NCBI GenBank assembly: GCA_020632415.1
Contig: JACKFO010000002.1
Coordinates: forward strand, 578,732-642,731
Origin: Candidatus Nomurabacteria bacterium
GTDB taxonomy: Bacteria > Patescibacteriota > Patescibacteriia > UBA1558 > GWA2-36-10
DNA length: 64,000 bases
Direction of reading: 5' to 3'
The translations under genes and the position numbers were made by a program. The notes below the pieces were generated by a model. The model had not been told where the DNA came from, did not search any database, and was given only the letters and a program-made list of their open reading frames with translations. Shown piece after piece: positions 3,766 to 50,652 of the stretch; position 1 is the first letter of the stretch, and each line of letters starts with the position of its first letter.

Positions 3766-4401
3766 ATGTTTAACCTTTCTTAGGCTTAAAAACAACAATT
3801 TTTATTTTTAAGACTCTTTATTTAATATACTCTATATTAGCAGAAAAATCAGCAAAAATCAATGTCTGATTTACTAATTTTGACAATCATAAAAGGCGCA
3901 TCCCGCGCCCCATTATATATAAAATATTATTTATTGGGTGAGATGCGCCTATGTCTCTATCAACCACTTGTTTCCGATCCCAAAAGATCAGAATTGTTGG
4001 CAAGATTTTGGTTTGCAGAGACTAAACGCTTTGTCCTGACTCTAAAGCTGCCACTTTACCATATTGCTGGTTTTGATCTCCGCTATTTCTTTTTGATGCG
4101 AGGATAAACCTTTTTATATTTTTATTTTTATTTTATAGGTGAGAAGGGTCAGGGCCTTCTCTAATATTGAACATACAGTAAAATGGAAAGAACTATTCAC
4201 TAAATTTCTTTAACGAACAAGTCTTTAGGTTTTTCAAAGAGCTAATCACTTATCAACATAATAAGTATATCATATATTTTGACTTTCGTCAACGCTAAAG
4301 CTTGGCTAATTTTAGCAAAAATAATTTCTTATTAAAATATGTTTTGACAAGCTTGTAAAATTATATCAAAAATTATACACAAGTTATCCACAAATCAAAT
4401 T

Positions 4402-5736
4402 TTACCAACAAAATTGCCAGCCTTGCGAAGAATGATCATGATAAGCCATAAATTGCCAAAAATGATCAAACTCAACAAAGGTTTCTGGTAATTTTAAGCT
4501 TTCTAAAACACTTTGATCTAAAAATATCCACTGAGCAAGCTCTTTTTGTCCTTCTAGACAAGGAGCTATTTCGTCAGAAACAGCATTTTTACCCAAAGAA
4601 CCCAAAAGCTCAACTGAATTACTCAAATAATACAAACCGTCCTGCTCTAACAAGACCAAATTAGCTAATTGCCAAGCGTCTTGCTCAGGCCAAGCTAATT
4701 TTTGCCACTCTAGGTCAGCCAAAACCAACTCTTGATATAAAGTTCCGTCTGCTAAAGTACGACTCTCCTCTTTCAAAGGCAGGCTCTCTAAAAATAAAAC
4801 CACACTTGGACGCAAATCCTGGGGGCTGACTACTAAATATTGGCCCGCTTCATTTTCCCAAAGCAAAACTTGTTGATTTAAAAACTCATCTCGCTGTAAA
4901 TTTTGCACCGGCAAGCTCTGGAAAATTTCACTGGTCAAAAATGCTTGCCAAGAACTAGGTTCTAGGTCCTGAAAATCATCAAAGGCTAAAATTGCCCGTC
5001 CTTTTTTAGGGATCAAAGCCTGCTCCCAAGAAAAATTCTCCTCTGTTTTAGTTGCTTGATAAAAATTTATTTTATTTTGATCCAAATGAACAAAAAGACT
5101 TTCTTGATCAGACCAAGGAAAGCTTAGTTCAGCGCTCTTTTTGATCAAGACCTGAGACATTTCTGGAGACAAATACAAATTTACTCCGCTTTGGCCTTTG
5201 GCTAATAAAAATTTTTCCAAAACTAAAGCTTGAAATTTATCTTTTTGCTCAGACTCTGAACTCACCAAAAAAATCTGCTTAGTTAAAGCCGTTAATTTAA
5301 CGGTTGTTGTTCTTTGATTTAAAAAATTCAGCTCCTCTTTACTTAAAGCGCCTTTGATTTTTAACAAAAAATAATCTTGCTCGGTATCTTTCTTAAACCA
5401 AATCACCTCTTCTAGTAAAGCAGAATTTTCTTGCAGTAAATCTTGAATCTGCACTAATTTTTCTTGAGCAATTTGATAATTTAAACCTGGAAAATCAGCC
5501 TCTGAAAGCTTAAGTGCTCCTGGGTCAGCCCATTGCCAATAAAAACTAGTCTCTTCTGGCAAAAAATCAAAAGCTTGCAAGCTTGGTTTCAAAGAAAACC
5601 AAAAAGCCAACGACAAAACAACCAAAATTAAAGCCACTAAGTAGACCAGTGGCTGAAATTTTTTCTTTTCTTTCCCCGGCGTCAAGCTCTGCTCAACGCC
5701 GGCGGAATTATCTTTAACTAGCTCTAAAAAATCCAC
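4402..5736 (-). CDS. Hypothetical membrane-anchored protein (N-terminal TM, large extracytoplasmic domain)
   Basis: 444 aa with a single N-terminal TM (LVYLVALILVVLSLAFWF). No recognisable motifs. Lies upstream of pnp. Confidence 0.6.
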   Translation of the reverse strand: MDFLELVKDNSAGVEQSLTPGKEKKKFQPLVYLVALILVVLSLAFWFSLKPSLQAFDFLPEETSFYWQWADPGALKLSEADFPGLNYQIAQEKLVQIQDLLQENSALLEEVIWFKKDTEQDYFLLKIKGALSKEELNFLNQRTTTVKLTALTKQIFLVSSESEQKDKFQALVLEKFLLAKGQSGVNLYLSPEMSQVLIKKSAELSFPWSDQESLFVHLDQNKINFYQATKTEENFSWEQALIPKKGRAILAFDDFQDLEPSSWQAFLTSEIFQSLPVQNLQRDEFLNQQVLLWENEAGQYLVVSPQDLRPSVVLFLESLPLKEESRTLADGTLYQELVLADLEWQKLAWPEQDAWQLANLVLLEQDGLYYLSNSVELLGSLGKNAVSDEIAPCLEGQKELAQWIFLDQSVLESLKLPETFVEFDHFWQFMAYHDHSSQGWQFCW

Positions 5737-5739
5737 TGC

Positions 5740-7962
5740 TTATTTTTTAAACTTTTTAAAAAATGGTTTTTTATCTCCTGGACGAGAGAAATCATTCTTT
5801 GGTCTTTCTTCAAAAGCTCCCTCTGGACGAGGCAATAAAGCTTTGATTGACAAAGAGGTTCTATTTTTTTCTTTATCGATATCAACAACTTTAACTTTGA
5901 CCATGTCGCCGACGTTAATTTTGTCAGTGACCTTGTTAATTCTAGTATGATCAACTTCTGAAATGTGAACCATGCCATCTTTGCCAGGTAAAATTTCAAC
6001 AATTGCTCCAATCTCAGTGCCACGATTTTTATCTTTGACAATTTGAATCACCTTGCCATCGTAAATTTCACCAACCAAAACTTCTTTGACGATGTTCTCC
6101 ACCCAAGCCTTAGCTTTGGCAGCGCCTTCTTCGTCATGTGAAGTAATCATCACTGTACCATCTTGCTCAATGTCAATCGCCACGTTACATTTGTCAATAA
6201 TTTCATTGATCACCTTACCGCCAGTACCGATCACGTCTCTAATTTTATCTGGATCAATGTGCAAAGTATCAATGCGTGGAGCGTATTGAGATAATTCTTT
6301 GCGTGGCTCAGCAATAGCTTTAGCCATTACCTCCAAAATTTGCAAACGAGCAACTTTGGCTGCCTCTAAGGTTTCCTTGACCACCTGATAAGAAATACCA
6401 CCGAGCTTAATGTCTAACTGAATTGCTGTAATGCCATCTTTAGTACCAGCAACTTTGAAATCCATATGCCCAGAATGGTCTTCAATACCCTGAATATCAG
6501 TCAACAATTGATAATGATTAGGGTCTTGATCATCCAAAACCAAACCCATGGCGATTCCAGCAACTGGAGCCTTAATTGGCACGCCAGCATCCATCAAAGA
6601 TAGAGTCGAACCACAAATCGAAGCCTGTGAAGAAGAACCGTTGGAGCCCAAAACCTCAGAAACCACTCGGATCGTATAAGGAAAATCTCCATTTTCTGGT
6701 AAAACTGCTAACAAGGCTTTTTCGGCGAGTGCTCCATGACCAATTTCTCTTCGGCCTGGTCCACGAAGTGGTTTGACTTCACCAACTGAAAAACCTGGGA
6801 AGTTATAATGATGCATGTATTTTTTGGAACCAGACTCTTCCATGCCATCTAAGGTCTGTTCGTCTCCAGGCGAGCCTAAAGTAACGATTGATAAAACTTG
6901 AGTTTCACCACGAGTGAATAAACCACTGCCGTGAGTGCGCTTCAACAAAGCAACCTCAGCTGACAAAGGCCTGATTTCTTCAAAGCCACGACCATCAGGA
7001 CGTTGTTTTTTTTCTAAAACTAATTTTTTGAAAGCAAGCTCCAAAGCAGCATCAATCATGCTCAAGCCCATTGCTCGCATATCTTTAGAAACTTCACTAT
7101 CTTCTTTTAAAATTTCATTTAGCTCATCTTCGATAGCAACAATTGCCGCTTTCATCTTTGATTTATCAGGATCAAAACAAGCGCTTAAATCTTTTGTTTC
7201 TAAAAATTGATTTACTTTGTTTTTGACTAGCTCTTTTTCTTTATTTTGTTCAGGATCAATCACTGTTTCGCGCTTAGCTTGGCCAGCTTCTTTGATCACA
7301 CTTTCAACAAAACCAACTAATTTGGCAATATGTTTTCCAGCAAACTCAATTGCTTCAAACATGGTCTTTTCTGGAACTTGTTTAGCGCCGGCCTCAATCA
7401 TAATCACCTCTTTGGCAGAGCCAGCTACGAATAATTCTAAATCACTCTTAGCTTTTGCTTCAACGCTAGGATTAATCACCCATTCTTCGCCAATGTGACC
7501 AATGGAAACACCAGCCAAAGGACCGCCCCAAACAATCGGGGAAATACCCAAGGCAATTGAAGCTGCAATCACACTTGGAAAGTCCGGATCATTAATACCG
7601 TCATAAGACAAAACCGTAATTACTACCTGCACATCGTTTCGTTCTGATTCATTGAACAAAGGACGAATCGAACGATCAATCAAACGAGCAGTTAAAACTG
7701 CTTCATCAGTTGCTCGTCCTTCACGCTTGATAAAACGAGAACCTTTGATCTTACCAGCGGCATACAAACGCTCTTCGTAATCAACCATCAAAGGAAAATA
7801 ATCAATTCCTTCTCTTGGTTTGCTAGCTGAAACTGCGGTAGCCAAAACTACTGTCTCACCATAAGACACGGTACATGAACCGTGAGCCTGTTTGGCTAAC
7901 TTGCCAATCTCCACTTCTAAGTGTTGCCCACCAATTTCTGTACTAAATTTTTGAATAGACAT
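5740..7962 (-). CDS. pnp: Polynucleotide phosphorylase (PNPase)
   Basis: Full-length PNPase: two RNase PH domains, then KH and S1 domains (…VGDMVKVKVVDIDKEKNRTSLSIK). Classic rpsO-pnp arrangement. Confidence 0.95.
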   Translation of the reverse strand: MSIQKFSTEIGGQHLEVEIGKLAKQAHGSCTVSYGETVVLATAVSASKPREGIDYFPLMVDYEERLYAAGKIKGSRFIKREGRATDEAVLTARLIDRSIRPLFNESERNDVQVVITVLSYDGINDPDFPSVIAASIALGISPIVWGGPLAGVSIGHIGEEWVINPSVEAKAKSDLELFVAGSAKEVIMIEAGAKQVPEKTMFEAIEFAGKHIAKLVGFVESVIKEAGQAKRETVIDPEQNKEKELVKNKVNQFLETKDLSACFDPDKSKMKAAIVAIEDELNEILKEDSEVSKDMRAMGLSMIDAALELAFKKLVLEKKQRPDGRGFEEIRPLSAEVALLKRTHGSGLFTRGETQVLSIVTLGSPGDEQTLDGMEESGSKKYMHHYNFPGFSVGEVKPLRGPGRREIGHGALAEKALLAVLPENGDFPYTIRVVSEVLGSNGSSSQASICGSTLSLMDAGVPIKAPVAGIAMGLVLDDQDPNHYQLLTDIQGIEDHSGHMDFKVAGTKDGITAIQLDIKLGGISYQVVKETLEAAKVARLQILEVMAKAIAEPRKELSQYAPRIDTLHIDPDKIRDVIGTGGKVINEIIDKCNVAIDIEQDGTVMITSHDEEGAAKAKAWVENIVKEVLVGEIYDGKVIQIVKDKNRGTEIGAIVEILPGKDGMVHISEVDHTRINKVTDKINVGDMVKVKVVDIDKEKNRTSLSIKALLPRPEGAFEERPKNDFSRPGDKKPFFKKFKK

Positions 7963-8095
7963 AATGTCAATTTCCTTCAAGCAGAAAGATCTATGACAAC
8001 AAGCCTTAGACCCTTAATTAAGACATCTACTTAACTAATAGCCTATTGTCTGTTGTCAAAAACTTTTGCTTTGTTAATAATAATTTATTTTAAAT

Positions 8096-8126
8096 AGTCC
8101 TGCAGCCAGAAAATGACCGCAGGACT
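8096..8126 (-). promoter_or_regulatory. rpsO-pnp intercistronic hairpin (rpsO terminator / pnp leader processing site)
   Basis: AGTCCTGCAGCCAGAAAATGACCGCAGGACT has an 8-bp GC-rich stem. It sits right after the rpsO stop and ~115 nt upstream of the pnp start. In other bacteria this position carries an RNase III/autoregulatory hairpin. Confidence 0.5.
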
Positions 8127-8131
8127 AATTT

Positions 8132-8479
8132 TTATTCTTCAATTTCCTCTTCTTCCTCTTCAGTGACTTCTTCTTTTTCTAAATACTCTGCCATATTAAC
8201 CTGTTGACGTTTTGGCATCTTTAGTTTCAAAGCTTTAACTAATTTTGTAAAACGTTTTTCATCTTCTCTTTCTAAATAACGCATTAATTTATGTCTTAAA
8301 GCGACTTTAGCAAGCAAACCACGGCGAGAAGAAAAGTCTTTCTTGTGAGTTTTTAAGTGGTTGGTCAACTCTTTGATCTCTTCAGTCAAAATAGCAACCT
8401 GCACCTCTGTAGATCCAGTATCATTTTTGTGAGTACGATACTTTTCTACCAATTTTAACTTCTTTTTCTTGTCTAACAT
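8132..8479 (-). CDS. rpsO: 30S ribosomal protein S15 with an acidic C-terminal tail
   Basis: S15 signature (TGSTEVQVAILTEEIKELTNHLKTHKKDFSSRRGLL…) plus an unusual EEEEEEIEE tail. Confidence 0.9.
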   Translation of the reverse strand: MLDKKKKLKLVEKYRTHKNDTGSTEVQVAILTEEIKELTNHLKTHKKDFSSRRGLLAKVALRHKLMRYLEREDEKRFTKLVKALKLKMPKRQQVNMAEYLEKEEVTEEEEEEIEE

Positions 8480-8644
8480 ATTTTTTCTTTCACCTTAATC
8501 CGAGTAAGTAAGCTAATTTTAGACAGAATACAGCTTAAACCAAGACTAAGGACTTAATAATAATGTAAGGATATACTAACATTTTTAAAACAAAAAGTCA
8601 ATCCCGCATTTAACAAAAACTTTGAGCGTGCTAAAATATATTAT

Positions 8645-9442
8645 ATGACACAAAAAGAAAAAACAGCTTTAAAAAAATACGAGAAATACTTAAACAACAA
8701 AAAACTCCAAGCCTCTACCATCACTACTTATCTCTGGCACTTAGAAAAATTTTTTGCTTGGCTTAAGAATCAAAAATTAAGCACGGCTAAACTAAAAAAA
8801 TACCAAGAAGAACTACTAAAAAATCATTCTCATATAGCTAGCATCAATTTAAGATTGGTGATTCTTAATGATTTTTTAAAACTAGAAAAAAATTCCTGGC
8901 AATTTCCCCTCTTGAGCGCTGAAAAACAAAAAATTGAAATCCTAGATAAAAAACAATTAGATCAATTTTTAAATTCTCCAAAAAATCTGGAAAATATTTT
9001 AAATTTGCGAAATAAAGTTTTGTTGGAAATTTTATATTTTAGTGCTTTGAAAGTCAAAGAAATAGTACTTTTGAAAAAAGAAGATTTTGATCTAAAAAAT
9101 AATTTTTTATTATGGCAAAAGAAAAAAATAAAATTGCCCCAAGAGACAAAAAATTATTTACTCAAATATTTAAACAAAAGAATCGACGATTCTCCTTATT
9201 TATTTTTAAATTTTGACCGTGCCAAAAAAGATGAGCAACAACAACTCTCAATTCGTTCGGTTGAAAGAATTTTGGAAAAATACGCTCGTCAAATGCAGCC
9301 GATTTTGCGCATCACTCCACAAACTCTAAGGCACACCTTGGCTTATCATCTCAAACAAAATGGTGCGCAAGTCAAAGAAATCCAAAACGCCTTACATTTT
9401 CAAAGCTCAGTTGCTGCTCAAGAATATTTTAAAAAATTATAA
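8645..9442 (+). CDS. Tyrosine site-specific recombinase (Xer/phage-integrase family)
   Basis: C-terminal catalytic region LRHTLAYHLKQNGAQVKEIQNALHFQSSVAAQEY (R…HxxR…Y). AT-rich host-like codon usage. Lies immediately upstream of the GC-rich island. Confidence 0.7.
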   Translation: MTQKEKTALKKYEKYLNNKKLQASTITTYLWHLEKFFAWLKNQKLSTAKLKKYQEELLKNHSHIASINLRLVILNDFLKLEKNSWQFPLLSAEKQKIEILDKKQLDQFLNSPKNLENILNLRNKVLLEILYFSALKVKEIVLLKKEDFDLKNNFLLWQKKKIKLPQETKNYLLKYLNKRIDDSPYLFLNFDRAKKDEQQQLSIRSVERILEKYARQMQPILRITPQTLRHTLAYHLKQNGAQVKEIQNALHFQSSVAAQEYFKKL

Positions 9443-9738
9443 TGGCCAATAAATATCAAAATTTAAACCAAAGCCAAGCCGAATTAGATTTTCATGATTT
9501 TAGTGTCTTGACTAAAGAAGAGATTATTAAAATTACTGACGATTTTATCAATGACGCTCAAGAAAAAAGCTATCAGCGAATTAGCTTCATTGTTGGTCAA
9601 GGAAAACACTCTAAAAATGGCGCCGTGATCAAGCCATTATTGGAAAAATATCTTACTACTCATCCCGAAGTAAGTCGTGTCCAAAAAGGCAAATTTAATC
9701 AAGGAGGCGAAGGGGTTTTAGTGGTAGATTTAAGCTAA
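9442..9738 (+). CDS. Smr-domain protein
   Basis: ELDFHDFSVLTKEEII…RISFIVGQGKHSKNGAVIKP matches the Smr (MutS2 C-terminal-like) fold. Its start overlaps the recombinase stop. Confidence 0.6.
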   Translation: MANKYQNLNQSQAELDFHDFSVLTKEEIIKITDDFINDAQEKSYQRISFIVGQGKHSKNGAVIKPLLEKYLTTHPEVSRVQKGKFNQGGEGVLVVDLS

Positions 9739-9740
9739 AT

Positions 9741-9810
9741 AAAAACAGAGCTAAAAATTTTATTAAACGCCGTTCCAGCTAAAAACATAAAATTTTTAGT
9801 TCTGTTTTTT
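9741..9810 (+). terminator. Long imperfect inverted repeat (20-bp stem, 29-nt loop) downstream of the Smr gene
   Basis: AAAAACAGAGCTAAAAATTT … AAATTTTTAGTTCTGTTTTT, followed by a T-rich tract. It could be the Smr terminator or a recombination site at the island boundary. Confidence 0.45.
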
Positions 9811-9831
9811 AAATTTGTTAAAAAAATAAGA

Positions 9832-9860
9832 GGCCCGGTTCTCGCGTGAGAACCGGGCCT
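9832..9860 (-). terminator. GC-rich rho-independent terminator of the foreign two-gene operon
   Basis: On the minus strand: GGCCCGGTTCTC-ACGC-GAGAACCGGGCC followed by CTTATTTTTTT. Sits 27 nt after the stop of the 1162-aa gene. Confidence 0.7.
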
Positions 9861-9886
9861 GATTGTTGCATATCGATTCAACGAAT

Positions 9887-12800
9887 TCAGCGGATCGAAC
9901 TGCCGTCCGGACCGTCGAAGATGACCTCCACAGTCGCTCGGTAGAAGGTGTTGGGCAGCCCAGTAAGCGTGTTGTCCTGCCACTGAAAACCACCTGTACC
10001 GTCCCAAGGAACCGTAGCGATCAGCTCGTAAACGCCGTAGACCTCCGCACTACGGTAGATCTTGAGTTGACTACAAGCCGCATGCTGCTCGAAAGTCAGC
10101 ACCGGCCGACCAGCGACGAGACGCAGATCGAAATGCGGAGCAAGCAAGTTGCCCGCGTACAGATGCTTGACCTGGCCACTGTGTCCAGGCCCCAAGGGAT
10201 GCGGCCAACTCGACCAGTTGGTCGACAGCGAATTGCTGAAGTGCAAGACACCGTCTTCCCATTGACCGAAATGGGTTTGACCGTTGATCACCAAAGGCAG
10301 CGGGAAATGATCCGAAGTGCTCAGGTGCACCAGGGCTTCATCCGACCAGCGATCCAAGCTGGTACCGTGCCAAAATTCCAGACCTACGCCTCGCTTTTGC
10401 GCGACCAGATCCTCGATGCCATCGTTATCCAGATCGTTGGGCAACATGTAACGATGTGCCAACTCTGGATCAACGATCGTCTCCACCTGCGACATCCAGT
10501 CTTCCTGGGAAAAGTCACAGATGAAGATACGAGAACTGTCGGGCGAAGGATTGATGTGCGGAATCCACATGTTGAAAGCGACACGAGGAGCTTCCAGGGG
10601 TGAATCGCTGACCAACGGAACCATCGACTCCGGCCCATAGCCAGTGTAGTTCTGGTAGGACAGATAGTCGATGTTGTAGACCCACTGTTGCTCTGCTTCT
10701 GACCAGGAGGCCATCAACAGAGCACGATAGGCATAGGGATCACCATTGCCTGGGCCGACGTTGATGATCGCCATAAGATCATAGAAGCCGTTATTCAGGA
10801 AATCACCGGAAAGCAGCTGCAAGACTTCGATTGATCGATTGTCGAAGAGCTCCCGAGTCGCTCGGAAACCTTCGTGGCCATCGAGATCAAAAGTCAACAA
10901 CAACGGCTCATCCAGACTACCGCCTGACAAAGCGAAATGAGGCCCCAAAGCATCGGTCCCCATGTAAGCCATGTGTCGCACTGGCAAGACAGTTGTCGGC
11001 AAGCTGATACTGGTTCGACTGGGTAGAATCAAGCCACCATCGCGCCGACGCAACACCAAGTACTGACCGTCGACGTAGGCGATGACTTTGCCTGTGACTA
11101 ACAGCTCCGGATCTTCCAGTACCATCAGCTGATGAGCATTGTCTCCACTCACTGGCCAACCGGGAACCGCCTGAGGAGTCGAGATACCGTTCAGGGACCA
11201 GACCCGTATCTGATTGTCAGTAGCCACGATCAGCTCCGGAACTTCATCTCCGGAAAAGTTGAACAACAGCAGATCCCGAACCTCCGAGAAGGTCCAAGAG
11301 TTGACCAGGCTCGACTCGTAGTAGACTCGCACCTGGTTGTTGTCAGCGATCGCCAAATACCCGTGATTCGATGACCACTTGAAATCGCTGTTGCAAGCGA
11401 TCTCAAAATTGCTCATCGGCGTACCGATGAGCGGCGCCCTAGTCGCGAGAGTTTGCAGAGGTCCTGCGGGCTGGAGGCTCTGGACCGCAAAGTCCAAATG
11501 CCAACGCCGTCCCAAGAACGACTGCTCACTCGGAAGAGAAAGCTGTTGCCAAGGCACAAAGAAGGGAACTACTTCGTTCTGCTCCCAGTTGCCCGAAAGC
11601 TGCGAAGAGCAGTTGATCCATCCTTCTTGATCCTGACCGTTGAACTGGATTTGTTGCACGTCCACACCGGCGTTGTACATCGGCGCATACAAGCTGTTGT
11701 TGTAAGCGAGGGGCACCTCGGTCTGATACATGCCATCCTGCGGGAGCAAGATGACTTGATCAGTTTCGGTGTTGCTCAGATGCAAAACAGTCTGCAAGTT
11801 GCCGTCGACACTGAAGCTTAGATCCCAGGAAAACACCGTAGGCGTTGTGTCCCAAGAGTCTCTGCTCATGACAGAATTGCCAGCAGTCGGAAAAGGAGCG
11901 AGTCGATCATCATGTGGCCAGTAACCATCGCCGTCGAGTGAAACTCGCTCGGCATAGATCAGCTTTGCCACTGTCTCCAGGCCCTCCCACCAGGTATGCA
12001 AACCACCGTGGGAAGCAGTTACCAGGCCCATGCCGAAGGCTTCCTCGCTAGCGGGATACCAGCGCATCTGACTACCTGGGCCATTCGACCAAGTAGAGAC
12101 GTAAAGTTTCTCTTCTTGATTGACTGGGTTCTCCAAATAGTACACATGGTCGACGCTAAGCACAAAATCCCCTGCCTGAGTAATGGGGGTGGCATTCTGC
12201 AACCAGCCCGCCTTGTAACGATCGGCTGGATTCCAGAGAGCCGGCGAGTAGATGTGTCGTTCCGGCGAATCCATCGGCACCCGCCAATTGCTAGCAAAGC
12301 CACAATAGCCCAGGCCCATCGCGTCCCAACAACCAGAATCGCTGTCATCAACCCACATGTCGATGAAAGTTTCCTTGTAGCCCTGAAGCTGCAAGATGGC
12401 TCGCATGTACCAACCCGGACCGAGCTGATCGACTGGAGTGAAATCCATAAAGCTATTGGTTCCGCACCAGGCACTCACGAAGGCAAAGCCCCTTTGGGGG
12501 TAAGCCATGACCTCTTGCATGAAGTGAGTGCCTGAGAAAACGAAGAGCACAGGGTGAAGTGGATCCATATTCTGCAAATTGACCCCTCTCTGCTCCAGAT
12601 AAACAGGAAGTTGATTGACGTCAAATGCGAGGGTCGTTGCAACGTTCACCTTGAAAGGCTGACCAGTCTCCGGATCCAAGATCAGACCAGGATGATCACC
12701 GTACCAGGAGCAACGCTCGGTGTCCGGCACGATATGTGACACCACGACATCCTGATTGTTTTCCCAGAGTTGAGCCACGGAATGAGGAAACTCTCGACCA

Positions 12801-13375
12801 TAAGCCGACTGCGCCCCATCTGGCATTTGCGAAGCGAAGAAACTCTGATACCAGAGTTCCGGATTGATCGACTCTCCCGGACGATCAGGATGTGTGTAGA
12901 AGTCTCCGTCATCAAAGTAGAGTGAATCCTGATACTCAGCGCAGAGTATGATCGGAATCACCGTCAGCTGCCGATCTTGCACAATCGGCAGCTCAGCGCC
13001 GCTGTTGTTGTTGAAGCTCTGACGCTGGGCGTCATTGACTTCTCGTACCAGTTCTTCGGTCGCAGGCGGAGTGTTACTGGGAAACACAACTCCTGAAGGC
13101 ACGAAGCCATCGGGAGTCGGCACCAGGTACCGCAGTTCATCACCATCGACCACTGGCACAAAGCCGGTCGGTCCGGCTTGCCAGTGTCGAAAGTCAGTGG
13201 AGGTCTCGCCGACGGGCGTCAGTGGACGCCCGTCCGTATCGCACACCGTCACGCCCCAGGGATTGGTCTGACTCAGGATCTCCTGACCGTTCCAAATCCG
13301 AGTCCCCGGGACTGCCATTGCCAACTGTGCCATCAGGCACAAGAGCAACAGCGCGAAGAAATTCTTGCGTGTCAT
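9887..13375 (-). CDS. Large secreted protein (1162 aa) of foreign GC-rich origin. Carries FG-GAP-like repeats and a possible His/Cys caspase-like peptidase core (speculative).
   Basis: Signal peptide MTRKNFFALLLLCLMAQLAMA. GC ~55% with GC3-rich codons, against a ~32% host. FG-GAP-like segments (FSGDEVPELIVATDNQ; NDLDNDGIEDLV). A His…Cys pair (SGTHF…AWCGTNSF) is only weakly reminiscent of clan CD peptidases. SD AAGGAAG. Confidence 0.7.
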   Translation of the reverse strand: MTRKNFFALLLLCLMAQLAMAVPGTRIWNGQEILSQTNPWGVTVCDTDGRPLTPVGETSTDFRHWQAGPTGFVPVVDGDELRYLVPTPDGFVPSGVVFPSNTPPATEELVREVNDAQRQSFNNNSGAELPIVQDRQLTVIPIILCAEYQDSLYFDDGDFYTHPDRPGESINPELWYQSFFASQMPDGAQSAYGREFPHSVAQLWENNQDVVVSHIVPDTERCSWYGDHPGLILDPETGQPFKVNVATTLAFDVNQLPVYLEQRGVNLQNMDPLHPVLFVFSGTHFMQEVMAYPQRGFAFVSAWCGTNSFMDFTPVDQLGPGWYMRAILQLQGYKETFIDMWVDDSDSGCWDAMGLGYCGFASNWRVPMDSPERHIYSPALWNPADRYKAGWLQNATPITQAGDFVLSVDHVYYLENPVNQEEKLYVSTWSNGPGSQMRWYPASEEAFGMGLVTASHGGLHTWWEGLETVAKLIYAERVSLDGDGYWPHDDRLAPFPTAGNSVMSRDSWDTTPTVFSWDLSFSVDGNLQTVLHLSNTETDQVILLPQDGMYQTEVPLAYNNSLYAPMYNAGVDVQQIQFNGQDQEGWINCSSQLSGNWEQNEVVPFFVPWQQLSLPSEQSFLGRRWHLDFAVQSLQPAGPLQTLATRAPLIGTPMSNFEIACNSDFKWSSNHGYLAIADNNQVRVYYESSLVNSWTFSEVRDLLLFNFSGDEVPELIVATDNQIRVWSLNGISTPQAVPGWPVSGDNAHQLMVLEDPELLVTGKVIAYVDGQYLVLRRRDGGLILPSRTSISLPTTVLPVRHMAYMGTDALGPHFALSGGSLDEPLLLTFDLDGHEGFRATRELFDNRSIEVLQLLSGDFLNNGFYDLMAIINVGPGNGDPYAYRALLMASWSEAEQQWVYNIDYLSYQNYTGYGPESMVPLVSDSPLEAPRVAFNMWIPHINPSPDSSRIFICDFSQEDWMSQVETIVDPELAHRYMLPNDLDNDGIEDLVAQKRGVGLEFWHGTSLDRWSDEALVHLSTSDHFPLPLVINGQTHFGQWEDGVLHFSNSLSTNWSSWPHPLGPGHSGQVKHLYAGNLLAPHFDLRLVAGRPVLTFEQHAACSQLKIYRSAEVYGVYELIATVPWDGTGGFQWQDNTLTGLPNTFYRATVEVIFDGPDGSSIR

Positions 13376-13396
13376 GTCGTCTTCCTTTCAATTCGG

Positions 13397-14995
13397 TTAC
13401 TTAAGCAGAGTCAACTTTTGTGCAAGGAAGCAGTTCTTGGATCGCAGTGCTACTATGTACACACCACTAGCTTCCTCAGCAAAATCAAACACCTGTCGAT
13501 GCTCGCCTGCTGAGAAAAATTGCGGTGATTGTGATTTCACTTGCCGTCCCAACAAGTCGTACACGCTGAATGTCAGCCACTGTGCCTCAGGCACCATGAA
13601 GCTGATATTGGTCTGCACGTTGAACGGATTGGGATAGCAATCCAAACTGAACTCTTGCGGCCTAGCGATCGGCTGCTCAACGGATACTTGATCCAAGAGC
13701 AAACCCCAAGCAGTAGTGACCCACTGATTGTTGAGATAATCACAAGTTGCTCCGCAATAAGTTCCAGAATTTGTAACAATCGCCTTAGTCTGAGAATAGG
13801 GTCTAGCTGCGTCATTGGCTGCCATGTAGCCCGGCAGAGAGAACTGATGACTCTCCACGAATGAAAAGCCGTCGAATTCAAACCACAGAGCTTTTTGAGT
13901 AGCCAAGCTCGACTGATACCACAGTAAGTGGTTGTCGAGCAGGTCAACAGCCATGACCAAATCGTCGATCACCAAAGAATCCAAGATCTGACCAGTTTCA
14001 GTCAGAGCAAAAAGCAAACCATGACTAGGCGTAGCACCGGAAGTAGTAGCGACCAACAAGACATCGTCCTGCCAAACCGGTACACCATACCAATGAACAC
14101 CATGATACAAAGTATCTGCAACTACTTGCTGACCATCATAGAGATCGGTCACTGTCAGCTGCAGATAATCATTCCAGTATGGATCCGAGCCCACGATACC
14201 GACGGAGTAAAGATTCCCTCCTCTAATGCTCAAACGCGAGCGGGCTTGAGGAAAATCATTTGCCGTCGTCCAGACAAACTCTCCATCGGCTGACAAGAAA
14301 GCTGTATGCTCCGAGTTCTGCAGAACAAAACCATCGGCATAAGCAATCATTGCCAGCTCTGAACTGTAGCTGTCCCCAAGATAAGTCACGGGATCATCCC
14401 GCAACAAAATGCCTGTGTTTAGATCAAGCACCTGTACGTAGTAGCTCGGTGCTTGCTGTCCACTGTGACCATCAGAAATTCCTTTGACGATCAGAAGTCG
14501 ATCGCCGTTGATCAGGGGCTGGAAACCAGCGCCCAAAGAAATTTCCAGACTGTCCAAAGGACCATCGCTCAGCGACCAATCCTCCACGAACTGCCCAGTC
14601 TGATAGTCAGGATGCAAACGATGATAGTGCATGGTGGTCGTGTTTACCTCAGTAAGAGTAAACTCGGTCTCCACCAGAACAAAACCATTGTTCTGATCAG
14701 TTACTACTTCGCCACCCGTTGCCGGATGATTGAGCAGCAACTGATCGCTGATCAGAATCGTACCTTGCGGACTGTGCACGCTGGCGTAAGCGTCACCGTA
14801 GTAAGGCGGCGCATATCCGGCATACCACAAATCCAAAATATTGTTGTCAGCCAAATTCTCAGCAAACAACGACGTTGCCGTCGGTGTCTGCGGATTGACT
14901 CGCTCCACCCAAAAGTAAGTGGAGTCGATGCCGTCTTCTTGAGCATAAACCGTGTTGCAGAACAACACGATCAAGCCCCAAAGCAGAGTCTTCAT
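13397..14995 (-). CDS. Secreted protein with a type IX secretion system (Por) C-terminal sorting domain; foreign GC-rich origin
   Basis: Signal peptide MKTLLWGLIVLFCNTVYA. The C-terminal ~80 aa (CYPNPFNVQTNISF…LTFSVYDLLGRQVK…ASGVYIVALRS…KLTLLK) match the T9SS CTD consensus. SD AAGAGGTGTGAG. GC ~53%. Confidence 0.75.
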   Translation of the reverse strand: MKTLLWGLIVLFCNTVYAQEDGIDSTYFWVERVNPQTPTATSLFAENLADNNILDLWYAGYAPPYYGDAYASVHSPQGTILISDQLLLNHPATGGEVVTDQNNGFVLVETEFTLTEVNTTTMHYHRLHPDYQTGQFVEDWSLSDGPLDSLEISLGAGFQPLINGDRLLIVKGISDGHSGQQAPSYYVQVLDLNTGILLRDDPVTYLGDSYSSELAMIAYADGFVLQNSEHTAFLSADGEFVWTTANDFPQARSRLSIRGGNLYSVGIVGSDPYWNDYLQLTVTDLYDGQQVVADTLYHGVHWYGVPVWQDDVLLVATTSGATPSHGLLFALTETGQILDSLVIDDLVMAVDLLDNHLLWYQSSLATQKALWFEFDGFSFVESHQFSLPGYMAANDAARPYSQTKAIVTNSGTYCGATCDYLNNQWVTTAWGLLLDQVSVEQPIARPQEFSLDCYPNPFNVQTNISFMVPEAQWLTFSVYDLLGRQVKSQSPQFFSAGEHRQVFDFAEEASGVYIVALRSKNCFLAQKLTLLK

Positions 14996-15178
14996 CTCAC
15001 ACCTCTTATTTTCATTGTTTTTCGTTGAAATCGATATGTAAACCAATTGGTTGATTAACCAAATGGTTATTTTGTAAAAGGACAGATCTAACTAGATACC
15101 ATAGTAAAAATAGCACATTTTGTCAATAAACAAAAAACGCCCTTCTCAAATCCGAGAAAGACGTCTCAAAAATCAATG

Positions 15179-31940: not shown

Positions 31941-32015
31941 GCCCCGATAGTTCAACGGATAGAACAGTAGCCTTCTAAGCTATAGATCTAGGTTCGATTC
32001 CTAGTCGGGGTACCA
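31941..32015 (+). tRNA. tRNA-Arg (anticodon TCT), CCA encoded
   Basis: Hand-folded cloverleaf: acceptor GCCCCGA/TCGGGGT, anticodon loop CTTCTAA, T-arm GGTTCGATTCC. Confidence 0.8.
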
Positions 32016-32043
32016 TCACATATTACATATTTATTTTAAACAA

Positions 32044-32119
32044 GCCCTTATAGCTCAGTTGGTAGAGCAGTTGCCTCTTAAGCAAACGGTCCCAGGTTCG
32101 AGTCCTGGTGGGGGCACCA
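32044..32119 (+). tRNA. tRNA-Lys (anticodon CTT), CCA encoded
   Basis: Acceptor GCCCTTA/TGGGGGC with two G-U pairs, D-arm TAGCTCAGTTGGTAGAGC, anticodon loop CTCTTAA, T-arm GGTTCGAGTCC. Confidence 0.8.
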
Positions 32120-32134
32120 CTAATTTATAAACAT

Positions 32135-32210
32135 GGTGGCTATGGTGTAACGGTTAACACAGCGGTTTGTGGTACCGCTAATGAGGGTTCGATTCCCTCT
32201 AGCCACCCCA
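32135..32210 (+). tRNA. tRNA-His (anticodon GTG) with encoded G-1 and CCA
   Basis: Extra 5' G pairs with discriminator C73. Anticodon loop TTGTGGT. T-arm GGTTCGATTCC. Confidence 0.8.
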
Positions 32211-32360: not shown

Positions 32361-34358
32361 TTAGCTCTTGATCTCCTCCAAGAATCGATCAACACCAATA
32401 CGTTGACGCAGACGCTTCATACCACCATCGCCAATACCCGGCGACAGTCGATGTTTGCTGTCCAATTGGAAACAAAGTGCGTTGAGTTGATCACGCGCAA
32501 ATTCCGCCAGAGACATGATCTGCGTACTGAAGATAACGCTGACGCCAGATCTGGCTAGAGTGTTGAGTAGATCGCGACCTAGCTCGAAACCAGCCATCTC
32601 CTGTGTGCCGGTGCCAACTTCATCCAAAACTAGGACGACACGCTTACCATCAATTCCCTGTATCCCCCGTAGGATGTTACGGATCTTGCCCAACAGGATT
32701 TCACAGGTGGATCCTTCACCTCGTTGAGCGATGAAGACCATGCCCAGCACCTTCTTGACGTTGAAACGGAAAAACTGCCCAAAGACCGGCAATCCACTCT
32801 GAGCCAAAAAGATGTTGACGACAATGCCAATCTGCGTCTCACTCTTGCCGCCACCATGTTCGCCGGTCAAGGCAATCATGCGACCATTCAATTCCGGCAA
32901 AGAGTGTACCGGTACTACTTGACCCTTCTTCAGATGACAGAGCAACTGAGTCGGGTAAAGTTGACCAAACTCAACGACATGACCGTCCGTGACGATCTCG
33001 GGCTGACAGATTGGTACGCCGAATTTCAAAGCGGTGTCTTGAATGGATCGCAGGACCGAGATGACAACCTGCAGTTGATTCCAGTACTCAGCGAAAAAAT
33101 TTCGCTGATCTTGCAATGCCTCGTAAAGATCGTGAAATTCCTTGCCACGGTATTCATTGAGGATGGCAAACCAACGGAATTCACGATCCATGTTTAGAGA
33201 GGTGCTAAAGAAAGGCGTGAGAAATGAATGGTTCTGCCTCACAGCCGCAGCAATCAGTGCGTTATTGGCCTGAGCATGAGCTGCCTCGTCCCTTTTTCTC
33301 TGAATCAAGACTTCAGCTTTCATGATCTGTTGGTACTTCAAAGCATCGTAACCAGCAAAACCATCGGACAAGTTAACAGTCTTTCTGTCTTCAGGTTCGG
33401 GAATCTCCAGATGCAAAATCGTAATTTGCAGACCACTCTGATCATAGGAGAATTGTACCGTCGCCTGGCCACCATTAAGACTGGAATTGTCCCAGTGGAT
33501 TTTACGCAGCTTTCCGAGGACTGCTGATCGAATATCTTCGATCATGGAAGTTGAAATGCTATTGATGACCATAGCTTTGTAAGCTGGGCGGCAGCGGAGA
33601 AGATTTTTGAAATCAACCAACTTGCGCCGCAAAAAGCCAAAACCCAGCCAGTTGAAAGGATTCAGTGCATCGTGCGTCCACTTTGGATAAGCGAGTTTGG
33701 TGCTTATCTTCTGGGAATACTTGCGATGACCAAAGACCTCTCCACCTGAATACTCCAAATCAGAAACAAGGAAAAGGGACTGATCAGGATCAACGCCCAT
33801 CTTTTCCTTGACCGATTTCTCGACACCTACTGTTACCACTTCAAAGCTCATCCAGCCGTGCATGACCGTAATCTGTTCCACTCGTTGAGTGATGATGTCG
33901 GCCATTTTACGTTCGGCAGCTTCCAAATCGAGACCAACCAACAACTTATTGGCAATCATTTGCAGATCAGGAGGAGCATCCGGAGAATTCAGAATGAATT
34001 CTATCCACCCATGGACCATTGCCCAGTAGGGATTGTGTTCATTCTGGGGGTTGTAAAACTTAAGGAACTCTTCTTCATCAATCGGAAGACCGGCCGTTAC
34101 GCCAGATTCTTCAACCCAACTCGTAAAAGCAGGGTGACCTGTTAAGAAACGACAAAGATTGTGTCGACGATGTAACTCTTCCTCATTTGTGATTCCGAAG
34201 CTGGAAGCCAAAGACGAATCCTTGATACCAAGAGCTTTAAGAAATTCATCAACTGGCAGGTCCTCTTCGTTGATAACCTGCAAACGATCACGCTTGTGAA
34301 TCTTGGTCTTCCACAGCGGTTGAGCTGATGGATCCGGATACTTGATTGTGGTGGCCAT
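32361..34358 (-). CDS. MutS-domain-V (ABC-type ATPase) protein fused to a ~430 aa N-terminal domain of unknown function; GC-rich orphan
   Basis: The C-terminal ~220 aa carry a Walker A (TGEHGGGKSE), a Walker B (VVLVLDEVGTGTQEMAG) and a STQ motif in the ATH position, plus MutS-like C-terminal RLSPGIGDGGMKRLRQRIG. GC ~48%. A long GC-rich terminator hairpin (CCGGATGACAGGG…TCATCCGG plus T-run) sits at 32294-32332 on the minus strand. Confidence 0.65.
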   Translation of the reverse strand: MATTIKYPDPSAQPLWKTKIHKRDRLQVINEEDLPVDEFLKALGIKDSSLASSFGITNEEELHRRHNLCRFLTGHPAFTSWVEESGVTAGLPIDEEEFLKFYNPQNEHNPYWAMVHGWIEFILNSPDAPPDLQMIANKLLVGLDLEAAERKMADIITQRVEQITVMHGWMSFEVVTVGVEKSVKEKMGVDPDQSLFLVSDLEYSGGEVFGHRKYSQKISTKLAYPKWTHDALNPFNWLGFGFLRRKLVDFKNLLRCRPAYKAMVINSISTSMIEDIRSAVLGKLRKIHWDNSSLNGGQATVQFSYDQSGLQITILHLEIPEPEDRKTVNLSDGFAGYDALKYQQIMKAEVLIQRKRDEAAHAQANNALIAAAVRQNHSFLTPFFSTSLNMDREFRWFAILNEYRGKEFHDLYEALQDQRNFFAEYWNQLQVVISVLRSIQDTALKFGVPICQPEIVTDGHVVEFGQLYPTQLLCHLKKGQVVPVHSLPELNGRMIALTGEHGGGKSETQIGIVVNIFLAQSGLPVFGQFFRFNVKKVLGMVFIAQRGEGSTCEILLGKIRNILRGIQGIDGKRVVLVLDEVGTGTQEMAGFELGRDLLNTLARSGVSVIFSTQIMSLAEFARDQLNALCFQLDSKHRLSPGIGDGGMKRLRQRIGVDRFLEEIKS

Positions 34359-34538
34359 TCTCTGTTCCTCCGACTCTGTTTTTGAGGTTGTTGTTTCTCT
34401 ATAGACAATCTTTCAAAGTGCAAATTAGCGAGTTTATCGCAATGCCTTACTATATGATATTTTACTTATTTTGTCAACCTTATTTCTAACCACCTAAAAA
34501 CAACAAATGCCCCTCTTGAGAGATTACTAGAACTCCAT

Positions 34539-34674: not shown

Positions 34675-35721
34675 ATGAAATTGTTTAAAAATCTGCAAAA
34701 TTTTAGCGACATGGTAATGTTTACCATCATTGGAGGGATAATCGGCTCTATATTGATTTTAGGAGGTTTTATTTGGTTAAAAATGAGCAGTCAACACAAC
34801 GATACATATTCGAGCAATGTGCCTCAAGTAATATCGAAATCAGAACATTTGAAATTAGTTAGTGATTATTGTTATTATGGAGATTGTTTGTTTCAGAACG
34901 AAGAAGAAAACAATAACTATGTTTTTGGTCTTACTACTTTGAAAGGTTGGCATTTTACTCGTGATAGCATAGGCATGGGTGGGGACAATGTGACTTGTGA
35001 TGCTTTTGTGATTGAAGAAGGCCCAAGGCCACTTGTAAATTTTTATAGAGACATAATAGAGAGTGGAAATAATTTTTATAATATTGATGAAAATGGTTAT
35101 TTTACTATAAATATAAATTTAAATAATTTATCAGATGACGAGAGAGCGCTTATTCTTAATTCTGATTCGTATCATCCTATTGAAATGATGATTTTTCAAA
35201 ATCCACCCCTTGGCAAAGGAGAAGCGGCCTGTATGAGCACTGTTCGTATATTAGAAATTGAAAAAGCAACGCCCACTTGGCAAACCTATAGAGATGCAAA
35301 AAATACATATGAGTTTGAATATCCATCGGAGTGGAGAGTGACGGAATATGCTAGTGAAAATATTTCTATAAGTATGGACGTTGTTGGAGATACGGTATTA
35401 TTCATGAAGGGCGTCTCTATTTTTCCATTAAGCCAAAACAGTGTAAATGTTTTGCTCGATGAATGGCAAGTAAAAAAACAGGATTCAAATCAAGGCATGG
35501 TAATTTTTGATTATTTGGAAAATGAAAATATATCAGGTCAAGAGGTTTTGGTTCGTAAATTTAGAAATCAGGACAATCAACACGGAGGAACTGACTATCT
35601 TTTTCCATTTAAAAAATTATTATTGGAAATTCCAGATTTGATAGAAAAAGATGGCGCATCTGAAGAATATACCAACACAGTACACGATAGATTTTGGAAA
35701 ACTTTCAAATTTCTAGATTAA
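34675..35721 (+). CDS. Membrane-anchored hypothetical protein, paralog 1 (MKLFKNL N-terminus, one TM, extracytoplasmic domain)
   Basis: Shares a 27-bp 5' leader and an MKLFKNL-plus-TM start with the next gene. Confidence 0.55.
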   Translation: MKLFKNLQNFSDMVMFTIIGGIIGSILILGGFIWLKMSSQHNDTYSSNVPQVISKSEHLKLVSDYCYYGDCLFQNEEENNNYVFGLTTLKGWHFTRDSIGMGGDNVTCDAFVIEEGPRPLVNFYRDIIESGNNFYNIDENGYFTININLNNLSDDERALILNSDSYHPIEMMIFQNPPLGKGEAACMSTVRILEIEKATPTWQTYRDAKNTYEFEYPSEWRVTEYASENISISMDVVGDTVLFMKGVSIFPLSQNSVNVLLDEWQVKKQDSNQGMVIFDYLENENISGQEVLVRKFRNQDNQHGGTDYLFPFKKLLLEIPDLIEKDGASEEYTNTVHDRFWKTFKFLD

Positions 35722-44585: not shown

Positions 44586-44675
44586 TTTACTTCTTTATTT
44601 TAACATTTTATAACATTTTAAAAAAGAGTCCCGTCTGACGGAGACTCTTTTTATTTTCTTTAAACTAAAATGTTT

Positions 44676-47921: not shown

Positions 47922-47940
47922 TAATTTAACTGGGAAATTA

Positions 47941-50547: not shown

Positions 50548-50652
50548 CGATTATTTTTTCAAAAATTATGTCTATATTATAACACAAATGAATCTAAATA
50601 AAAAATCAGCCGTAAAAGAACTTAAAGCTGATTCAACTTGCAAAAATAAGCT

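Follow-up and report, generated by a model that had tools for sequence, protein, structure and literature searches.

The stretch analysed here (the window) comprises 64,000 nucleotides of a genome assigned to Candidatus Nomurabacteria (assembly GCA_020632415.1, contig JACKFO010000002.1, positions 578,732 to 642,731 of the forward strand), within the candidate phyla radiation (CPR, or Patescibacteria). It holds, in otherwise AT-rich surroundings, a GC-rich island of two adjacent genes for secreted-type proteins: gene A (13397-14995, minus strand, 532 aa), in which a passenger region is followed by a C-terminal domain (CTD) of the type IX secretion system (T9SS), and gene B (9887-13375, minus strand, 1162 aa). 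We read this island, with moderate confidence, as a two-gene module acquired horizontally from a GC-rich, outer-membrane-bearing and T9SS-using lineage, resembling those of the Fibrobacteres-Chlorobi-Bacteroidetes (FCB) group; the acquisition would be old, located in a hypervariable slot of CPR chromosomes, and partly ameliorated in composition. Horizontal transfer into CPR genomes is already known, and an anciently acquired island in a variable locus is of a known kind. What is unusual here is the presence of cargo of an outer-membrane system in a presumably monoderm lineage, together with resident expression signals and inverted motifs at the edges.

The compositional contrast is clear-cut. 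In consecutive 1-kb windows over positions 10001-15000, GC content is 0.544, 0.541, 0.532, 0.518 and 0.497, compared with 0.300 and 0.351 just before the island and 0.303 just after it. At a resolution of 100 nt, it rises from 0.30 (9750-9849) to 0.55 (9850-9949) at the left edge, and falls from 0.49 (14900-14999) to 0.30 (15000-15099) at the right edge. The step is a codon-level property, with a GC content at third codon positions (GC3) of 0.630 for gene B and 0.528 for gene A, while about 54 other open reading frames (ORFs) of the window range from 0.13 to 0.44 (typically 0.25-0.36), apart from one further outlier (32361-34358, 0.51). Both genes are moreover preceded by strong Shine-Dalgarno (SD) sequences: GAGGTG (15000-15005, minus strand), read from the sequence five nt before the ATG of gene A and kept in the related locus L002 described below, and AGGAAG (13381-13386, minus strand), located inside the 21-nt spacer between A and B, whose surrounding region GAAAGGAAG is predicted to form an anti-SD duplex of -8.4 kcal/mol. 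The corresponding energies are -5.4 kcal/mol for the neighbouring tyrosine recombinase gene (Int), -0.5 for Smr, +0.5 for CorA and +1.0 for VIT1, and most genes of the window, these four neighbours included, have no recognisable SD sequence, most energies being near 0; the exceptions include S15, a few others and both presumed GC-rich imports. An earlier note, written from the sequence of this DNA, had proposed a GC-rich two-gene island with strong SD sequences that its surroundings lack, and both proposals are borne out.

Could such sharp steps simply arise from a GC-rich fragment of another organism joined into a CPR contig during assembly or binning? The position of the steps at the gene boundaries would fit such a chimera, as would the fact that several fragmentary assemblies end near the island edges (locus L003 at 4.1 kb, L213 and L214 at 1.8-2.8 kb), but this explanation is almost certainly wrong. 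Identical proteins in an identical context are found both on the 842-kb NCBI contig (locus tag H6761_02995) and in a separate Logan assembly of SRR12358675, that is, with a different assembler applied to the same run. An orthologous island, at the same position and with the same GC step, is present in GCA_018062885.1 (locus L002), a Patescibacteria genome from another sample, where the gene order VIT1, CorA / A, B / Smr, Int, S15, PNPase reproduces the neighbours seen in the window, and where GC3 is 0.53 and 0.60 in the island genes but 0.23-0.38 on either side of them. On the short contig L003, too, GC-rich genes stand next to the same AT-rich bracket elements, and in every case AT-rich resident promoter, leader and terminator sequences are fused to GC-rich coding sequences. 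An accidental join would not turn up again both in a second assembly and as an orthologous island of another Patescibacteria genome, so that a chimera can be set aside and the island accepted as genuine. An abrupt change of GC in a CPR genome assembled from metagenomic reads is not necessarily the sign of a chimera or of a recent event. As a separate observation, L003, L213 and L214 are short metagenome contigs with island genes whose ends fall close to the GC transitions; assemblers tend to break at such transitions, and islands of this type may consequently drop out of binned CPR genomes.

Gene A is the T9SS-type member of the pair. The ORF list extends this gene upstream to a TTG at 15046, and the database protein, of 532 aa, starts with MKTLL. 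The last part of the product (about aa 454-532, encoded by 13400-13636, minus strand) matches both curated models of the T9SS type-A CTD, or Por_Secre_tail, above their thresholds: PF18962 with 35.2 bits (gathering threshold 27) and TIGR04183 with 33.2 bits (cut-off 23), in agreement with the sorting domain announced for this gene in the earlier note. Full-length relatives are restricted to P0005, the orthologue in L002 (72% identity), and to a 517-aa Por_Secre_tail protein of the GC-rich locus L088, which is 25% identical to gene A over the full length (E 5e-21). The remaining matches in the databases, about 500, concern the CTD alone, and those that are labelled carry names of the FCB group, including Calditrichota, KSB1, Ignavibacteria, Kryptonia and Bacteroidota. 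Sequence profiles of the PDB gave no match for either the A or the B family; aligned with hhalign, the A family did not match the BamB-like propeller protein found in locus L032, and matched a protein of locus L039 in its CTD only. The N-terminus of gene A, MKTLLWGLIVLFCNTVYA|QEDG, resembles a Sec signal peptide, as does that of gene B, MTRKNFFALLLLCLMAQLAMA|VPG; both were judged by eye only, and to that extent the two genes are, as had been stated, genes for secreted proteins.

The presence of this domain in a CPR genome raises the question of what it is used for. Patescibacteria are thought to be without an outer membrane (PMC12102498), and none of the T9SS families was matched among about 26 ORFs of the window that were scanned, every large one included, which agrees with the earlier note's remark that no T9SS component is visible there. 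In this genome, the CTD would then be unable to serve as a T9SS signal. It has nonetheless been retained under constraint, as the CTDs of the window and of L002 are 52% identical, with 0.35 nonsynonymous substitutions per site (dN) for 1.74 synonymous ones (dS), that is, a dN/dS of about 0.2. Outside the slot, at least two more CPR-like loci have Por_Secre_tail proteins as well: L039 (20346-21998, minus strand) encodes a protein of 550 aa with a GC3 of 0.47 in a relative from the Parcubacteria whose host GC3 is 0.30, and L065 (1654-6102, plus strand) a protein of 1482 aa combining M23, FG-GAP_2 and CTD regions, with a host-like GC3 of 0.22, in a locus that is CPR-like but whose taxonomy is not certain. 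This retention, together with the occurrence of the domain on other CPR-like proteins, favours a second, structural or binding role, and the CTD is probably, judging from these sequence comparisons, a structural or binding beta-sandwich. A cargo module of an outer-membrane secretion system would have been kept for long under purifying selection in a lineage thought to lack the outer membrane, which would imply that the type IX sorting domain has some other use, independent of the T9SS. We found no paper on T9SS sorting domains in CPR bacteria.

Gene B belongs to a small family. An exhaustive HMMER profile search of 1.84 billion representative proteins recovered 14 members; a word-indexed search started from an alignment of 10 family sequences got no further than the same three proteins, and the GC-rich relatives came to light with the exhaustive search alone. 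In the neighbour-joining (NJ) tree, these members fall into two subfamilies with 100% bootstrap support. Subfamily 2 keeps the zinc-binding motif HELGH...D(L/T)Y and matches TIGR03296 with E-values of 1e-9 to 1e-10 (37.7-41.2 bits, below the cut-off of 110.8), whereas subfamily 1, which includes the window protein, reads VDQLG-PGWYM-R at that site (VDQLGPGWYMR in the window, against VHELGH in the sister subfamily), and has HE..H nowhere. The protein itself matches neither the Pfam M6 families nor TIGR03296 (no NCBIfam match at E <= 0.1). In the structure model, the putative signal peptide is followed by an M6/InhA-like domain (about aa 130-470) with a zincin / InhA-like fold in the catalytic-domain region, by a beta-propeller-like region (about aa 650-1075), and by a small all-beta C-terminal domain that is possibly FN3-like, as judged by eye. 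As modelled, gene B thus encodes an M6-like pseudoprotease fused to a propeller-like module; with DQxxG...R in place of HExxH, this protein cannot work as a canonical zinc protease. The His/Cys active site once proposed for it gives way to this M6-like fold without HExxH, the motif being kept by the sister subfamily only; the FG-GAP-like motifs proposed in the same place correspond to a sub-threshold match (14.7 bits, below gathering), although the model does contain a beta-propeller-like region. A phage origin was dropped, since viral contigs contained neither a relative of gene B nor the leader motif. In L010 (GW2011_GWA2_36_10), the subfamily-2 gene is split into two overlapping ORFs (4195-5982 and 5930-7366), by a frameshift, as a pseudogene or by a sequencing error.

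Where do these genes come from? Outside the CPR, homologues of gene B lie in loci of 62-68% GC in which they do not stand out: gene and flank GC are 0.651 and 0.620, 0.632 and 0.628, 0.643 and 0.684, 0.656 and 0.665, with GC3 values of 0.76-0.83. Their neighbours (TonB-dependent receptors, SecDF, PolA, further Por_Secre_tail proteins) are typical of free-living diderms. L088, one of these GC-rich loci, has an A-like gene directly upstream of a B-like gene, so that the two-gene module exists outside the CPR; its A-like gene and the spacers (7001-10000) have a GC of 0.47-0.55 and a GC content at 4-fold degenerate sites (GC4) of 0.61, compared with 0.63 and 0.81 around them, and are thus atypical there too. 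Another locus, L091, has, behind a subfamily-2 gene, the gene of a 231-aa CTD protein sharing 38% identity with the small CTD proteins located beside CPR B-type genes, and one partial member of the B family is labelled Cloacimonadota. As the CPR copies are compositional outliers with SD sequences, and the GC-rich copies are native and more diverse, a transfer from a GC-rich T9SS diderm into the CPR is the reasonable direction to assume. The FCB-like donor suggested earlier is therefore borne out in kind but not by name, through the native homologues in genomes of 62-68% GC, the A-like and B-like pair and the Cloacimonadota-labelled fragment. A donor of this type suggests a long-standing partnership of this Parcubacteria lineage with FCB-like bacteria, and offers a lead to the hosts of these epibionts.

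The opposite view would be that A and B are native CPR genes whose high GC results from selection acting on them, any transfer having gone from the CPR to GC-rich bacteria. The genes are indeed under purifying selection with a GC3 that looks stable, Por_Secre_tail proteins occur in other CPR-like loci (fully host-like in the case of L065), and the A-like gene of L088 is GC-poorer (about 0.5) than its own genome. We nevertheless judge this view very improbable: in four different GC-rich contexts, homologues of B have the composition of their surroundings and are more diverse (27-39% mutual identity), while the CPR copies are outliers equipped with SD sites that most host genes lack, and the only role known for the T9SS sorting domain is in diderms possessing the T9SS.

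The island lies in a gene-swapping slot common to related genomes. A survey of this slot, by means of a PNPase scan of species-representative genomes, yielded 80 loci, and showed that the Int-S15-PNPase block is syntenic in dozens of Parcubacteria- or Komeilibacteria-like genomes (L007, L009, L012, L013 and many other loci of the scan are titled 'uncultured Gammaproteobacteria bacterium' despite a Parcubacteria-type synteny, and L060 'Pirellulales', which look like placeholder or wrong labels). In contrast to this conserved block, what lies between VIT1/CorA and Smr varies, and has a raised GC, in every examined relative with Smr at this place, L029 being left aside. The slot contains A and B in the window; A, B and a 241-aa CTD protein in L002; a subfamily-2 B gene and a small CTD protein in L010 (4195-8092) and L009 (3780-7799); proteins of 267 and 119 aa, with a GC of 0.56, in L006 (6737-7960); and four other proteins, with a GC of 0.42, in L032 (3062-7626). 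All these cargo proteins start with a signal-peptide-like sequence. The cargo can differ completely between close relatives, as in L006 and L010 (PNPase 93% and Int 94% identical) or in L009 and L032 (PNPase 87% identical); in nucleotide sequence, L006 and L010 are homologous up to the end of VIT1, and again from precisely the conserved terminator hairpin onwards.

The recombinase beside the island (PF00589, 69.7 bits) and the Smr gene (56 bits), both of which adjoin it, had been taken as a mark of insertion. The best NCBIfam matches of this recombinase are XerA, XerD and XerC, and the integron-integrase model reaches only 29 bits; being of Xer type and syntenic in dozens of genomes, it is a core gene rather than the integrase of the island. 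The candidate role of Int as an island integrase was accordingly ruled out, the gene being present also where there is no cargo. The island has no mobility genes of its own, no tRNA lies near it, and its flanking repeats are inverted, not direct. Equally, the inverted repeat noted next to it, with a stem of 20 bp, exists at the place indicated but does not mark an insertion: its arms (9741-9763 and 9787-9809, 23 nt, 96% complementary) form, directly 3' of the Smr stop codon, the terminator hairpin of the Int-Smr operon (9741-9809, plus strand), which is kept with compensatory changes in L002, L006 and L010 and is not part of the island. For the same reason, the 23-bp repeat was discarded as an att site.

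What is shared by the different cargo units is the bracket of regulatory sequences around them. A sigma-70-type promoter, TTGACA-17-TATGGT(A), was found by a promoter scan at 15098-15126 (minus strand, 10/12 matches), and is also present at the head of both units of L002 and of the cargo units of L003 and L010, as it is, slightly varied, in L009, L006 and L032. It is followed by a leader with a conserved box CTTT(G/T)(T/A)CAAA, CTTTGTCAAA, upstream of a hairpin (15042-15067, minus strand) that lies between this box and the 5' edge motif; a hairpin is predicted in 5/5 related leaders at the same place and with different sequences, the total folding energies being no better than those of shuffled sequences. 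Among the covariance models of Rfam, no family matched the leader or the 3' element, and there were only sub-threshold terminator-like matches, none of them in the leader. On the 3' side, the cargo ends in a resident intrinsic terminator, AGGCCCGGTTCTC-ACGC-GAGAACCGGGCCT plus a T-run (9831-9860, minus strand), with a 13-bp stem including nine G-C pairs. The earlier note had described it as a GC-rich terminator of the island's own; the hairpin is where it was said to be, but it is an element of the slot, as the resident terminator CCCGGTT(T)CTC...GAGAACCGGG plus T-run is kept after different cargo in L002 (twice), L003, L006, L009, L010 and L032 (five of them related genomes in which the cargo differs), the cargo that precedes it in L006, L009 and L032 being unrelated to that of the window.

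The edges themselves are marked by inverted motifs. The 5' edge motif (15021-15040, minus strand), which reads TACATATCGATTTCAACGAA, is an inverted copy of the 3' edge motif GCATATCGATTCAACGAA (9868-9885, plus strand), located one nt after the stop codon of gene B, and the 64 kb contain just two copies of CATATCGATT, one at each edge of the island and inverted relative to each other. Inverted TGCATATCGATTY motifs, centred on ATCGAT, are found at the edges of cargo units in four genomes: besides the window, an inverted pair brackets the units of L002 (8347/13497 and 13659/14471, that is, two complete bracketed units) and of L010 (4064/8095), and the two ends are seen in L003 (3806/3967). The bracket can thus be described as a hairpin followed by (T/G)GCATATCGATTY at the 5' end, and as RAATCGATATGCA within a few nt of the stop codon at the 3' end. 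The 5' and 3' untranslated regions are predicted to pair, with a duplex of -22.3 kcal/mol in the window against -8.4 +/- 2.2 for shuffles, and of -19 to -24 kcal/mol across units against -8 to -12 for shuffled partners. The inverted motifs may act in RNA, by pairing of the ends, as an operator pair, or as recombination sites; neither a flipped nor an empty-site state of a cargo unit was seen. A metagenome scan with the 3' motif, TCGATATGCA-N8-12-CCCGGTT, gave at least 120 matches, and none of those listed had a terminator hairpin or an AT-rich context, as expected for chance matches.

The age of the island can be approached by comparing it with its flanks between the window and L002. Protein identity is 72% for A and 61% for B, within the range of 42-94% of the flanks (CorA 77, Smr 64, Int 62, PNPase 86). 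Synonymous divergence (Nei-Gojobori method, NG86) is 1.6 to above 2 for the island and 1.3-2.2 for the flanks, near saturation in both, and identity at 4-fold sites is 0.36-0.46 and 0.29-0.56, respectively. With dN values of 0.15 for the A passenger, 0.30 for B and the 0.35 given above for the CTD, against nearly saturated dS, all parts of the island are under purifying selection. The three CPR copies of B (window, L002 and L003) form a clade with 100% bootstrap support. As for composition, the proportions of A, C, G and T at 4-fold sites are.26,.18,.12 and.45 in the host and about.06,.40,.43 and.10 in the donor type; gene B, with.13,.28,.32 and.27, stands about half-way from one to the other, and the GC4 of cargo in related genomes ranges from 0.64 down to 0.35. 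The simplest reading of these comparisons is a single acquisition before the window and L002 genomes split, followed by partial amelioration. The transfer would then not be the recent one that had been proposed, given that island and flanks have co-diverged at the same locus, with dS near saturation and a codon composition half-way to that of the host.

Several results weigh against an old, single acquisition from such a donor. No GC-rich homologue comes closer to B than 39% identity, support drops to 2-45% at the deeper nodes of the NJ tree, and the scan for T9SS genes covers 64 kb only of the 842-kb contig. The slot cargo is incongruent with host relatedness, and the CPR copies of subfamily 2 and of the small CTD proteins are not monophyletic, which implies that turnover does happen at the slot. 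The GC3 of gene B is still 0.56-0.63 in three lineages despite nearly saturated synonymous sites. Finally, a neutral decay of GC4 from 0.85 towards 0.30 predicts an identity of at least 0.45 at 4-fold sites when GC4 is 0.6, and the value found between the window and L002 is 0.36; either amelioration was slower than neutral, or the copies diverged partly outside the CPR. A three-taxon parsimony test of polarity at the 4-fold sites of B counted 59 W>S changes (A/T to G/C) against 48 S>W, without an excess of GC-to-AT changes; it is not relied on, being weakened by saturation and by an outgroup that polarises poorly, with an expected ratio that drifts towards about 1.4 whatever the process.

A rival reading is that the cargo between the inverted TGCATATCGATTY motifs has been replaced repeatedly by cassette exchange at an active capture site. 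The copies of the window, L002 and L003 would then result from separate, later acquisitions from related but unsampled donors with a GC of about 50-55%, most of their divergence having accumulated outside the CPR. We hold this alternative to be unlikely. In four genomes the cargo is bounded precisely by the inverted motifs, which the window has at no other place, and a tyrosine recombinase is adjacent; that recombinase is, however, a core Xer-type gene present also without cargo, and no inverted or empty-site variants were seen. The different cargo of close relatives (L006 and L010, L009 and L032) is what exchange would produce, but differential loss from a larger ancestral array explains it equally well. 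The CPR copies of subfamily 2 and of the small CTD proteins are 36-44% identical to each other and 37-47% identical to GC-rich copies, and the GC3 of gene B has not been lowered despite a saturated dS; against this, no donor closer than 39% identity was found among 15 billion proteins, the three CPR copies of B form their fully supported clade, and the divergence of the island matches that of its flanks. In addition, the DNA from the 5' motif to the start codon is AT-rich and host-like, which also counts against exchange. We retain the old acquisition, with partial amelioration, as the preferred reading.

Under an old acquisition, the following sequence of events can be proposed. The module would have entered a CPR chromosome of Parcubacteria type, in the slot that separates CorA/VIT1 from the core Smr-Xer-S15-PNPase block, gene A being presumably a conserved partner of B already in the donor type; the ancestor shared by the window genome, GCA_018062885.1 and probably also the L003 organism would already have carried it. 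Since then, purifying selection would have kept the proteins while codon composition moved about half-way to that of the host. To judge from the signals in the sequence, transcription would start from the resident promoter (15126-15098), run through a leader of about 100 nt with its hairpin, and end at the resident terminator (9860-9831). As A and B are only 21 nt apart and each has an SD sequence, they probably form one operon, with SD-led translation of both genes, and both products would be exported by Sec. If Patescibacteria have no outer membrane, as is thought, the exported A and B proteins should reach the cell surface or the medium, where the gene B product would most plausibly be a binding scaffold that works together with A and most likely touches other cells or polymers.

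A more speculative version, which we consider improbable, would turn the CorA/VIT1-Smr slot into a dedicated capture-and-expression site, in which genes for secreted proteins taken from T9SS-bearing bacteria, possibly the hosts of the epibiont, are swapped between inverted TGCATATCGATTY sites by recombination that is maybe Xer-assisted. Resident signals would drive the cargo, and the CTD would be kept to dock the CPR surface protein onto CTD-binding T9SS components of the host outer membrane, thus mimicking the cargo of the host itself.

Other features of the window touch on composition or on surface proteins without belonging to the slot. The second compositional outlier (32361-34358, minus strand) is a gene of 665 aa with a GC of 0.48, a GC3 of 0.51 and a strong SD sequence (-9.5 kcal/mol). 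It has no signal peptide and no Pfam match, and only its C-terminal ATPase part is MutS2-like, at a sub-threshold 23 bits to TIGR01069; it adjoins a cluster of tRNA-Arg/Lys/His genes (31941-32210) and has its own TTGACA...TATAGT promoter at 34448-34477. This gene, too, is probably of foreign origin, with no relation to the elements of the slot. Two adjacent genes on the plus strand (34675-35721 and 35766-36956, 348 and 396 aa, without Pfam match) share a near-identical 25-nt upstream sequence (ctaaaaacgttattaaat[t/c]taaaatATG), which suggests a tandem duplication. Further on, the region 41670-51516 (minus strand) encodes three large proteins of 868-1081 aa with a host-like GC (DUF4215, Beta_helix/NosD, Big_13), adjoined at its high-coordinate, upstream end by a gene whose product matches the pilin N-terminal methylation motif weakly and below threshold. 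This run may represent the native surface-protein repertoire of the genome, in contrast with the island.

How does the island compare with systems already described? Gene A shares with the T9SS type-A cargo of Bacteroidota and other FCB bacteria (TIGR04183 / PF18962) a passenger and the C-terminal domain, and has what looks like their Sec signal peptide, but differs in its host, a member of a group thought to be without an outer membrane and with no T9SS part seen in the window, and in a passenger that has full-length relatives in only two other places. Gene B matches neither the M6 peptidases (immune inhibitor A, TIGR03296) nor the NCBIfam model NF052323, 'T9SS-dependent M6-like inactivated metalloprotease': it has no CTD of its own, the CTD being carried by the neighbouring gene A, and its family has only 14 detectable members.

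At the level of the locus, horizontal transfer and genomic islands have been described in Patescibacteria, with Bacteroidota among the recurrent non-CPR donors and most transfers not recent (PMC12455944). The island of the window is likewise a compositionally atypical block in a streamlined CPR genome, but it is devoid of mobility genes of its own, of a tRNA and of direct repeats, its slot is variable across relatives, and it is wired to a resident promoter, leader and terminator with inverted motifs at the edges.

An integron array combines an IntI-type integrase with promoterless cassettes, each ending in attC. The slot resembles such arrays, and invertible-DNA switches, in having a tyrosine recombinase beside modular units with short edge sites. 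Its units have, in contrast, their own promoters, and their sites form an inverted pair per unit instead of a single attC; the genes and the recombinase operon run towards each other, the recombinase itself is of Xer type and syntenic without cargo, and no inverted state is observed. The analogy with integrons was ruled out on the basis of this Xer-type recombinase and of the promoter found on every unit.

The slot also resembles hypervariable surface-structure loci such as capsule or O-antigen loci, which likewise combine conserved flanks, cargo incongruent with the host phylogeny, an atypical composition, and products that are located at the surface or secreted. The slot differs from them in that its cargo consists of proteins from another phylum rather than of polysaccharide pathways, and in that each unit comes with a conserved promoter-leader and terminator. 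A variable slot of this type, with its resident promoter, leader, terminator and inverted motifs, represents a compact candidate for the domestication and turnover of foreign surface proteins in a streamlined genome.

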